Source: an uncultured Gammaproteobacteria bacterium (GTDB taxonomy: Bacteria; Patescibacteriota; Patescibacteriia; Magasanikbacterales; UBA922). From it: a stretch of 32,741 bases of DNA. The stretch is from assembly GCA_964604685.1 (NCBI GenBank), contig CAZRZS010000002.1, positions 5,051 through 37,791 of the forward strand, read 5' to 3'. A program made the translations under genes and the position numbers. Shown one piece after another: positions 5,027-6,433 of the stretch. A model generated the notes under the pieces. It was not told the DNA's origin, ran no database searches, and saw only the letters and a list, made by a program, of their open reading frames with translations. Each line of letters starts with the position of its first letter. Position 1 is the stretch's first letter.

Positions 5027-6433
5027 ATGACATTTTTTGAAATCACCCACCAAGACAAAAACTCCAAAGCTCGTACTGGAATTATTCAAACTGCCCATGG
5101 CGACATTGAGACCCCGGTTTTTATGCCGGTCGGCACGCAGGCCACTATCAAAAGTCTAGATAGTGCTGACATACATAATTTAGATACTAAAATTATTTTA
5201 GCCAATACTTATCATCTGCACTTACGTCCTGGTGAAGATTTAATTGCTAAATTTGGAGGTCTGCATCAATTCATGAATTGGCACAAGCCAATTCTAACTG
5301 ATTCCGGAGGGTTTCAGGTTTTTAGTTTAGGTTTGCAGAAAGACAAACGAAACCCCACCCCTGCCTTGCCGGCAGGCAGGCTGCCCTCCCCGGAACTTGT
5401 CCCGAGTTTCATCTCGGGAAGGGGAGGGAAAATAAGTAGTTCCTCCCCCTATGAGGGGGAGGCGAGGAGGGGGTTTGGTAATTCCTCCCCTATAAGGGGA
5501 GGGAAAATAAGTAATTCCTCCCCCTATGAGGGGGAGGCGAGGAGGGGGTTTGGTAACAATCACCTCGTCAAAATCGACGAGAACGGCGTTACCTTCCGCT
5601 CGCACTGGGACGGCTCTACCCATCGCTTCACTCCTGAAAAATCAATTAAAATCCAGCATAAACTTGGCGCTGATATTATTATGGCCTTTGACGAATGCAC
5701 GCCAGATGACGCGGAGGAAAAATACGTCAGAGAAGCAATGGAAAGAACTCATCGCTGGGCTGAAAGAAGTTTAGATTATCATAACAGCAAAAAAACTAAG
5801 CAACATCTATTTGGCATAATCCAAGGCTCTAATTACGAACAATTAAGAAAACAAAGCGCCCGTTTTATTTCCACGCTGGATTTTGACGGCATCGCGGTTG
5901 GCGGCGAATCTGTGGGCTACAACATGGTAGCGACAAAAAATATTCTGGACTGGGTTTATCCTTATTTGACAGTAAACAAACCTCATTATGCCATGGGTGT
6001 AGGTTTTTCTCCGACTGACTTGTTTGACGTAGTGGAAAGAGGCGTAGACATGTTTGATTGTGTAGCACCCACGAGGATGGCGAGAAATGGCAGTTTATTT
6101 ATTTCCCCCCTATCAGGGGGGGTAAAGGGGGGTCTGTTTAAAAAAAGACCCCTCCCAACCTCCCCTAAAAGGGGAGGAGGAAATAAATACCGCATCAATA
6201 TTTTCAATGCCCAATATCAAGATGATAAACAGCCAATTGATCCTGAATGCACTTGTAGCACTTGTCAAAATTATTCTCGCGGCTATCTACATCATCTTTT
6301 TAAAGCTGAAGAACTTTTGGCTTATAGATTATCCACTATTCACAATCTACACTTCTTTTTGAATTTAATGAAGCAAATACAGAAAGCAATTAAAAATGAT
6401 AAATTTATTAATCTTAAAAAAAATTGGGTATGA
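5027..6433 (+). CDS. tgt: Queuine/preQ1 tRNA-ribosyltransferase (bacterial TGT) with two in-frame repeat insertions
   Basis: Has [24 protein letters not shown] and [12 protein letters not shown] motifs and the zinc motif CTCSTC...YLHHL. At 468 aa it exceeds the usual length of about 375 aa. The excess matches GC-rich blocks at about 5350-5560 and 6100-6185. Confidence 0.93.
5356..5389 (+). repeat. Hairpin module B, copy in tgt
   Basis: cacccctgccttgccggcaggcaggctgccctcc, with an imperfect palindrome around gccggc. Confidence 0.88.
5384..5428 (+). repeat. Hairpin module A, copy in tgt
   Basis: ccctccccggaacttgtcccgagtttcatctcgggaaggggaggg. The outer stem ccctcccc/ggggaggg is 8 bp and the inner stem tcccgag/ctcggga is 7 bp. 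It is 45 nt long, or 15 codons. Confidence 0.9.
5440..5478 (+). repeat. Hairpin module C, tgt copy 1
   Basis: ttcctccccctatgagggggaggcgaggagggggtttgg, with an 8-bp stem cctccccc/gggggagg. Confidence 0.88.
5482..5503 (+). repeat. Short CCTCCCC-loop-GGGGAGG hairpin between the two C copies
   Basis: ttcctcccctataaggggaggg. Confidence 0.8.
5515..5553 (+). repeat. Hairpin module C, tgt copy 2 (75-bp tandem duplicate)
   Basis: Identical to 5440-5478. The wider units starting at 5426 and 5501 match except for one base. Confidence 0.9.
6105..6177 (+). repeat. Three consecutive GC-rich hairpins inside tgt (insertion 2)
   Basis: cccccc-tatca-ggggggg (6105-6122), ggggtct-N10-agacccc (6129-6152) and cctcccc-taaaa-ggggagg (6159-6177). 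Confidence 0.85.

Follow-up and report, generated by a model that had tools for sequence, protein, structure and literature searches.

The tgt gene for queuine tRNA-ribosyltransferase in a 32,741-nucleotide (nt) stretch of contig CAZRZS010000002.1 (assembly GCA_964604685.1; the whole stretch is called the window below) contains an in-frame block of nested GC-rich palindromes, tgt insertion 1. In this study I argue that the block is probably non-autonomous mobile DNA, derived from a palindromic element that is associated with DUF559 nuclease genes, and that those copies survive which keep the reading frame in tolerant loops. As gene-less copies of a DUF559-nuclease element are found inside housekeeping genes, apparently selfish DNA is lodged in proteins and read as part of them.

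Insertion 1 in tgt and its empty site

The closest homologues of the window's Tgt protein bear the names Candidatus Magasanikbacteria or Patescibacteria. An earlier note, made from the letters of this DNA alone, had described an insertion at 5350-5560 between two TGT peptides, and the region is indeed as described and lies within one continuous open reading frame (ORF). Its size, given there as about 210 nt and 70 amino acids (aa), is corrected to 207 nt and 69 aa by alignment to an empty-site orthologue on contig L001, which sets the limits 5351-5557. The G+C content is 0.59 in the insertion and about 0.39 in the window, and the region folds at -121.6 kcal/mol (z = -4.98 against shuffles). 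Within it, a direct repeat of 63 nt occurs in tandem (5419-5481 and 5494-5556, 98% identity) with a period of 75 nt. The gene and the parts of the insertion are as follows, nhmmer values referring to the repeat profile described further below.

5027-6433, plus strand: tgt (queuine tRNA-ribosyltransferase), the host gene, 468 aa, continuous ORF, Pfam TGT E 1.8e-143
5351-5557, plus strand: tgt insertion 1, 207 nt or 69 codons, nested GC-rich palindromes, site empty in L001
5351-5359, plus strand: arm-prime (arm'), the left terminus AACCCCACC, aligned to arm' of DUF559-flanking repeats in L079, L076, L053, L067 and L070
5360-5380, plus strand: module B core, 21-nt palindrome CCTGCCTTGCCGGCAGGCAGG between arm' and hairpin, absent between the same flanks in the copy in the C39-peptidase gene
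5384-5428, plus strand: module A, terminal hairpin CCCTCCCC...GGGGAGGG, its loop with a 29-nt extension that includes an inner hairpin at 5399-5419
5429-5440, plus strand: 12-nt core or linker AAAATAAGTAGT, putatively in the place of the DUF559 gene in arms-outward copies (Deinococcus, Synechocystis)
5441-5475, plus strand: module C copy 1, hairpin CCTCCCCC-TATGA-GGGGGAGG and arm CGAGGAGGGGGTT, nhmmer profile E 2e-4, similar to the Deinococcus DUF559 repeat
5483-5503, plus strand: short hairpin, a terminal hairpin without loop extension or arm, nhmmer E 1e-6, 24.3 bits, 95% identical to L007 20625-20645
5516-5550, plus strand: module C copy 2, part of the 75-nt-period duplication, nhmmer E 2e-4

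The original parsing of the insertion as a B-A-C-C'-C array had to be given up: the real units are terminal repeats, with B a nested 21-nt palindrome and A having as its core the 29-nt extension of a hairpin loop. The most fitting reading of insertion 1 is a tandem of two gene-less elements in which the palindromes A and B are nested. On this reading the order would be arm', B, the terminal hairpin with module A, the 12-nt core, hairpin and arm (C), and then a second unit without arm', which would have been produced by the 75-nt duplication. The linker at 5429-5440 appears to correspond to the position of the DUF559 gene when compared by eye with L067, L060 and L061. That A and B are nested is suggested by copies with and without them; in the C39 copy the flanks of B are directly joined, AACCCCACC to CTACCCTCCCC, without the 21-nt palindrome, while a palindrome resembling B seems to be nested in the left repeat of L006 and similar ones seem to lie near arm' in L031 and L021.

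Alignment of the host proteins to an insertion-free orthologue, a check already proposed in the earlier note, found L001, a JGI contig, to be empty at every site compared. The window's gene order NDK-UvrD-C39-TGT-Vut1-QueA is kept in L001, and protein identity to the window is 78% for Tgt, 81% for UvrD and 61% for C39, with lengths in L001 and the window of 378 and 468 aa (Tgt), 666 and 757 aa (UvrD) and 276 and 288 aa (C39 peptidase). The window has 207 extra nt at tgt site 1, 63 at tgt site 2 (by protein alignment), 135 at uvrD site 1, 42 at the non-palindromic uvrD site 2, 30 and 57 at uvrD site 3 (split by the protein alignment) and 69 in the C39-peptidase gene; the flanks are too diverged for this comparison to resolve the exact insertion boundaries. 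L001 is essentially without GC-rich hairpins and gives no match to the repeat profile.

Two further assemblies contain the inserts. ENA contig L003 (ERZ27293347) equals window positions 1749-9238 with one mismatch and covers the inserts in uvrD, C39 and tgt, and JGI contig L063 (3300025021, another sample) equals positions 1776-5132, also with one mismatch, and covers those in uvrD and C39. With one mismatch each in two independent assemblies, misassembly is excluded as the origin of these inserts; this possibility, which the earlier note had named against itself, is largely refuted by contig-level matches with intact ORFs. The sole difference between L003 and the window is at 5462, inside module C copy 1.

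A repeat family with and without DUF559 genes

Among related loci, a composite copy is present in queA of L007, and others are found between tRNA genes or elsewhere in intergenic DNA of L007 and L006. With a degenerate 28-nt pattern taken from these copies I searched metagenome contigs and found 46, with a G+C content from 30% to 58%. Each has a conserved 33-nt unit, TTCCTCCCCTATCAGGGGAGGTTAGGTGGGGTC, and in most its reverse complement follows close behind; judged from their sequence, these units are terminal inverted repeats that consist of a hairpin and an arm each. Of 25 complete elements, about 21 are gene-less forms of 67-155 nt (minis). The full-length elements measure 446-449 nt and carry one gene, for a DUF559/Vsr-like PD-(D/E)xK nuclease (Pfam PF04480, E 1e-32 to 8e-34; 111.8-116.2 bits, cut-off 20.6), and a single 254-nt copy with a truncated ORF (L046) is a deletion intermediate that links the full-length and the mini forms. 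The best solved relative of the nuclease is PDB 3HRL (E 5e-15), and the 'mobile intron protein' 3R3P matches weakly (E 0.025). In the hairpin stem 99.2% of cells are paired and compensatory changes occur in 3 of the 8 pairs (28 cells, as against 7.8 in shuffles); by this pattern of substitutions the hairpin is under selection.

The tabulation of position, frame and length modulo three that had been suggested beforehand was made for the metagenome copies. The strong repeat copies, about 50, are mostly intergenic and the genic ones are in frame, whereas among about 18 intergenic minis only 4 are a multiple of three in length, a pattern expected from a read-through filter. The family is not peculiar to the window genome or to coding DNA.

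I then ran an nhmmer profile, built from unrelated metagenome copies of the repeat, on the window. It matched the left (6102-6134, E 9e-9) and right (6178-6147, E 2.5e-5) ends of tgt insertion 2, which is thereby a complete 78-nt mini, the short hairpin of insertion 1 (5482-5503, E 1e-6), both copies of module C (5440-5472 and 5515-5547, E 2e-4) and the copy in uvrD (2489-2463, E 3e-4). There was no match in 20 block-shuffled windows. Module C is furthermore 82% identical over 34 nt (E 1.8e-5) to the repeat that flanks DUF559 on a Deinococcus plasmid, and 82.5% identical over 40 nt to the repeat beside a Photobacterium DUF559 gene; overall, window modules show 77-84% identity over 33-45 nt to these two in relaxed BLAST searches. 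In alignment A3, module C groups with the hairpin+arm ends of DUF559 elements, two from Magasanikbacteria among these, and in alignment A4 the left end of insertion 1, the C39 copy and a copy on contig L064 group with the arm'+hairpin ends. Judged by the profile and these alignments, the family has terminal inverted repeats of two kinds, hairpin+arm and arm'+hairpin, and it is to these that C, the short hairpin and the left end (AACCCCACC...CCCTCCCC) belong.

Other searches were less informative. The bare 19-nt hairpin CTCCCCCTAYRAGGGGGAG was rejected as a diagnostic motif; in viral contigs it matched unrelated, mostly intergenic hairpins, and hairpin+arm patterns were therefore used instead. 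The inner hairpin of module A gave one match in a genome collection, an irrelevant intergenic one in a GC-rich metagenome-assembled genome. A protein search with the concatenated insert peptides gave only 3 matches, because the composition correction takes away most of the score, and yielded a chimeric ORF, described below, and one extra copy. Rfam, at gathering and E-value thresholds, returned only sub-threshold noise from generic hairpins (miRNA precursors).

The link with DUF559 was tested on genes picked by protein similarity alone and not by their repeats, and 8 of 39 matching records in a plasmid database were inspected. C-run hairpins, most of them with arms, lie close on both sides of DUF559 in six of the eight loci, as read by eye in the flanks: two Synechocystis plasmids, Pseudanabaena, Picosynechococcus, Deinococcus and Azospirillum. 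In Neisseria (L069) one hairpin is close upstream and others are 170-280 nt downstream of the gene, and in Photobacterium (L070) hairpins are found downstream only. In 50 kb of the Deinococcus plasmid (62% G+C) there are only two C-run hairpins with stems of at least 7, and these form a perfect 41-42-nt inverted repeat; inside it, in the interval from paaD to paaZ, lies a 474-nt cassette with DUF559. Inverted repeat copies also bracket DUF559 in L053, L057, L035, L056, L076 and L079. A database search gave 82 close homologues of one repeat-flanked DUF559 protein, the named ones being chiefly from Magasanikbacteria or Patescibacteria, and in two such loci the repeats abut the DUF559 gene. Between L005 and L076 the neighbouring genes are kept and the element is missing in L005; the flanks have diverged too far for a target to be defined.

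Downstream of ycjD (b1289), the DUF559 gene beside fabI in Escherichia coli K-12 (L073), hairpin+arm units are present as well (GGGGAGAGGGTTAGGGTGAGGGG); upstream of ycjD in K-12 there is none. Across all 5426 E. coli genomes searched, the 56-nt unit from this downstream region is found at 16 places per genome (median); it has no repeat annotation in the K-12 RefSeq record. A 581-nt query made up of ycjD and the units downstream of it matched 3445 of these genomes. This repeat is probably the one called 'Box C'. Its arm motif, TTAGG(G)TG(A)GGGG, is similar to GGAGGTTAGGTGGGGTC of the repeat in the candidate phyla radiation (CPR), but the two have diverged too far to be matched statistically in a direct comparison.

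A few observations concern the surroundings of these elements. The upstream repeat in L053, L057 and L076 ends its inner arm (…AGAGGGGGTC) 3 nt ahead of the ATG of DUF559, where it resembles a ribosome-binding site, and in the same loci the ORFs of neighbouring hosts and of DUF559 run into the repeats (…TPPNLP, …LTPPPTRGS). Genes for 23S_rRNA_IVP or bAvd-like four-helix bundles recur near Magasanikbacteria loci (L007 5671-7078; L076-L078 about 3440-3800), and L077 and L078 also have a PDDEXK_3 gene.

Copies in other window genes and the loops they encode

Every module named in the earlier note indeed has copies elsewhere in the window; A and B recur with 98-100% identity in the genes for UvrD, the C39 peptidase and a glycosyltransferase, in both orientations. 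B (5356-5389) is identical to 2409-2442 inverted (100%) and has a diverged copy at 3810-3833 (92%). A (5384-5428) is identical to 4417-4461 (100%), and a longer segment, 5381-5427, to 32695-32741 inverted (100%). C at 5442-5476 and 5517-5551 is 91% identical to 2459-2493 inverted, and the short hairpin at 5484-5502 is 95% identical to 6159-6177. The gene with module A in reverse encodes a 288-aa C39-like peptidase (4104-4970), and the glycosyltransferase gene is the truncated one at the right edge. Tgt and the glycosyltransferase do share a 16-letter peptide, and Tgt and UvrD an 11-letter one; module C is read as a 13-letter peptide in Tgt and, from another frame, as LPLQGGGEEGVLE in UvrD. One module read in two frames and both orientations indicates palindromic repeats at the level of DNA, not protein domains. 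The copies in the window outside insertion 1 are these.

6102-6179, plus strand: tgt insertion 2, complete 78-nt mini (hairpin-arm, 12-nt core, arm'-hairpin), nhmmer E 9e-9 left and 2.5e-5 right
4404-4472, plus strand (gene on minus): C39-peptidase copy, arm' - hairpin A - arm, 69 nt, empty in L001, present in the JGI and ENA assemblies
2391-2497, minus strand: uvrD insertion 3, hairpin C and arm, short core, arm' with B and hairpin, nhmmer 2489-2463 E 3e-4, empty in L001
3726-3860, minus strand: uvrD insertion 1, 135 nt, a diverged B-containing terminus (3796-3844) and more GC-rich hairpins, empty in L001
32692-32741, minus strand: module A copy in the truncated glycosyltransferase gene (Pfam Glycos_transf_1), 98% complementary over 50 nt to 5381-5430

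Insertion 2 of tgt is 94% identical over 32 nt to the copy inside queA of L007, and its site is empty in L001; insertion 3 of uvrD is 80% identical over 45 nt to the Photobacterium DUF559 flank. The additional GC-rich hairpins of uvrD insertion 1 (3716-3800; CCCGCCTCAAGGCGG, GGCTCGGGGGGAGTTGCCGAGG) have no copies elsewhere in the window and may belong to other palindrome families. The end of the window, probably also that of the contig, falls inside the right-edge copy of module A, which suggests that the repeat breaks assemblies. A fourth full module A, with both arms and in reverse, lies at 961-1030 of contig L064 (ENA ERZ27293393 k141_349829) in the N-terminal domain of a GT4 glycosyltransferase; this gene may be the absent upstream half of the right-edge gene, and the contig has Illumina adapter sequence at both ends.

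The clustering that had been noticed is borne out, with every GC-rich hairpin island located at 2.4-6.2 kb or at the right edge, and so is the scarcity of Shine-Dalgarno (SD) sequences within the window, where GGAG or GAGG is found upstream of 1 of 27 ORF starts. In a scan of the window, 10 of 11 GGGAGG motifs fall within 648 nt of inserts. Two further differences to L001 are of another kind: the 14-aa UvrD insert SAQHQTSGASSGAG at 3579-3620 is not palindromic, matches no module and is missing in L001, and the nucleoside diphosphate kinase (1177-1758) has 193 aa as against 159 aa in L001 at 41% identity, with extra segments that are not GC-rich.

At the six intragenic palindromic sites in the window, five of them empty in L001, the frame is kept without stops. 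Mapping the insert sites of Tgt on a solved structure, another check proposed in advance, gave breaks that coincide with the inserts: the alignment with Z. mobilis TGT structures is broken only at these two (query 102-180 = chain 112-114; 358-390 = 294-300). Length varies at both insert loops and a third one among 30 Magasanikbacteria-like Tgt orthologues, several of which contain S-P-x-x-G-E-type peptides, as such hairpins encode. AlphaFold2 places the core of Tgt in a confident barrel (pLDDT mostly 85-98) and gives residues 100-176 and 366-385 a pLDDT below 50 and no secondary structure; the inserts are thus predicted to be disordered loops on an intact TGT barrel. Presumably the loops are actually present in the protein, and they seem to be neutral passengers rather than useful additions.

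In other genomes, in-frame hosts (4-5 insertions) are UvrA, QueA (two genomes), GuaA and an NTPase/WD40 protein. The QueA proteins of L037 and L007, which are different genomes, have the element at the identical position, after TLEGIA, so that the insertion is either old or the site a preferred one. The window's own queA (7633-8703) has no element.

Alternative explanations, known systems and meaning

Under the proposed mechanism, insertion 1 would consist of two tandem gene-less elements with inverted repeats of about 33 nt at their ends, each a C-run/G-run hairpin and a G-rich arm. Short forms would arise by internal deletion from the form of about 447 nt that carries DUF559, and copies would land mostly between genes. 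In this compact genome, those that persist within genes have three things in common: a length that is a multiple of three, no stop in the host frame, and a place in a loop whose length already varies among orthologues. They would then be transcribed and translated into disordered, Gly/Pro/Ser/Arg-rich surface loops that the enzyme tolerates. The DUF559 nuclease may drive the spread, either by making breaks that are repaired in a homing-like manner or by an action on the hairpin ends. I found no consistent direct repeat as target-site duplication at the flanks of the 25 complete elements, which does not indicate classical cut-and-paste transposition; this and the nuclease family point to homing-like break-and-repair or a hairpin-directed process rather than DDE transposition. 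It is a speculation that the lack of SD-led initiation lessens the cost of GGAGG-rich inserts.

Several points weigh against an origin from DUF559 elements, the missing target-site duplication being one of them. There is no DUF559 gene in the window or in the loci of about 20 kb of its closest relatives. The repeat profile does not pick up modules A and B, whose nested placement comes from alignment by eye. A BLAST search of the plasmids with the canonical mini-element gave no match, and a narrow repeat profile run on the plasmid DUF559 flanks matched that of Photobacterium alone and weakly (E 0.03), the others being too diverged. Arms that point inward (L053, L076, L079, tgt insertion 2) coexist with arms that point outward (Deinococcus, Synechocystis, tgt insertion 1), and no single mechanism accounts for both arrangements. 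DUF559 is not known to transpose such repeats or to home on them; the gene may just be carried along as a passenger, or may itself parasitise the repeats.

Alternatively, ectopic gene conversion or template switching between neighbouring genes could have spread the copies locally, with hairpin-prone DNA being copied in repair and no dedicated element or nuclease taking part. The location of copies in three adjacent genes at 2.4-6.2 kb and one distant gene, the 75-nt-period tandem duplication within insertion 1, the missing target-site duplications and a window without DUF559 all suit such a process, which may account for the array structure in the window genome. However, many unrelated contigs and phyla share these termini, a conserved gene lies between them in the full-length copies, to which a deletion intermediate exists, and the hairpin has compensatory substitutions across copies, so that I regard this explanation as unlikely.

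Selection at the protein level for functional Gly/Pro/Arg-rich linkers or interaction surfaces, with the palindromes as a by-product, is very improbable. It would agree with the finding that Tgt orthologues across Magasanikbacteria have inserts, differing in sequence, in the same three loops, and with the QueA insert at one site in two genomes. However, a single DNA module gives different peptides by frame and orientation, a Tgt orthologue of 78% identity is entirely without the loops, AlphaFold2 predicts these to be unstructured, and most family members are intergenic.

It is still less probable that the segments never reach the protein, either because the RNA is processed at the hairpins or because ribosomes bypass the segments, as with the GC-rich 'byp' elements of yeast mitochondria. 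The great stability of the hairpins and an RNase III gene in the window would be in favour of this. However, all six sites in the window and the in-frame inserts of other genomes keep the frame without stops, while intergenic copies mostly have lengths that are not multiples of three; such a filter is only expected with read-through, and therefore argues against removal before translation. Moreover, cleavage at a hairpin would cut the mRNA, and no ligation system is evident.

That repeat-rich reads were collapsed or chimerically joined in the assembly is the least credible of these explanations, as ERZ27293347 (tgt) and 3300025021 (uvrD, C39) match the window with intact ORFs, even though the window terminates inside module A and a chimeric Tgt-glycosyltransferase ORF, joined at module A, exists in one other assembly. 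This ORF of 250 aa (L074, ENA ERZ27293393 k141_923657) has Tgt residues 1-135 fused exactly at module A to the C-terminal part of the glycosyltransferase. It could be the expected product of recombination between the inverted A copies at 5384-5428 and 32695-32741, a 27-kb inversion, or else a chimera made by the assembler.

The earlier note had likened the insertion to Rickettsia palindromic elements (RPEs), a comparison that stands for behaviour (in frame, in loops of housekeeping proteins, repeated at the level of DNA) and finds no support for identity, as the host is from a different phylum, Rfam gives nothing and the family is linked to DUF559. RPEs are palindromic repeats found in frame in housekeeping genes (Ogata et al. 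2000, as summarised in PMC3184786, which reviews other in-frame repeat insertions as well). The likeness, judged on behaviour and not on sequence, consists of in-frame palindromes in housekeeping genes of a small genome, extra surface loops, and genic as well as intergenic copies. In contrast, the window units are shorter, very GC-rich (hairpin+arm termini of about 33 nt), nested and in tandem, and their family has a full-length relative that carries a gene, DUF559; I know of no report of an RPE-encoded protein. Nor are the present copies confined to Rickettsia or Rickettsiales, the Tgt and DUF559 homologues being named Candidatus Magasanikbacteria or Patescibacteria.

Like miniature inverted-repeat transposable elements, the repeats have terminal inverted repeats round a short core, short forms derived by internal deletion (seen in L046) from a longer gene-bearing form, and a dispersed, mostly intergenic distribution; they differ in the missing target-site duplication and in a parent gene for a Vsr-like PD-(D/E)xK nuclease, which is not a recognised transposase. 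With repetitive extragenic palindromic (REP) sequences and their REP-associated tyrosine transposases (RAYTs; 'REPtrons'), and with bacterial interspersed mosaic elements, they share short GC-rich imperfect palindromes that are dispersed and form composite arrays, and a candidate mobilising gene, here DUF559, bracketed by inverted repeat copies. However, DUF559 takes the place of the HUH tyrosine transposase, and REPs are extragenic, while the window copies lie within coding sequence. REPs, imperfect palindromes of 20-40 nt, have GTAG or CGTC conserved at their head (PMC3733652); the present repeat consensus starts with TTCCTCCCC and has no such tetranucleotide at its 5' end. EDxHD or Vsr-like homing endonucleases such as I-Bth0305I (PDB 3R3P) belong to the DUF559 fold family (PMC3424549, PMC9403480). 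They too are small selfish nuclease genes, but those reside in group I introns or inteins, whereas DUF559, a gene for a predicted nuclease, stands free between hairpin repeats. The 'palindromic amphipathic repeat coding elements' were rejected as a match, being an unrelated repeat of Mollicutes. A literature search, with subscription titles outside it, found no in-frame palindromic elements in CPR bacteria and no link of DUF559 to flanking repeats.

Taken more broadly, it is conceivable, if short of probable, that DUF559 and its hairpin+arm inverted repeats constitute a widespread class of mobile elements, undescribed in the literature searched, that would parallel REP/RAYT with a Vsr-like PD-(D/E)xK nuclease as its enzyme. 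The class would span CPR bacteria, cyanobacteria, Deinococcus and Proteobacteria, including ycjD and orphan GC-rich repeats of E. coli, and its gene-less forms would seed intergenic DNA and be tolerated in essential genes of SD-poor CPR genomes, where they make new loops. The DUF559 association is the part most worth pursuing. It offers a testable function for an orphan domain, that of E. coli ycjD included, and a possible origin of GC-rich orphan repeats. The rest of the window contains a type IV pilus operon at 13839-26136 (PilB, PilC, PilM and at least 6 prepilin-like genes), whose pilin genes have paralogous repeats of 148-243 nt in common (families D1-D3).

For those who work with metagenomes, identical repeats of 45-50 nt break or mis-join assemblies, and gene calls come out inflated or split. 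Palindromic insertion in frame is one of the rare ways in which selfish DNA can directly extend essential proteins, and its occurrence in a bacterium of the candidate phyla radiation takes the phenomenon well beyond Rickettsia. Such insertions may help to explain odd lineage-specific loops in the proteins of tiny genomes.

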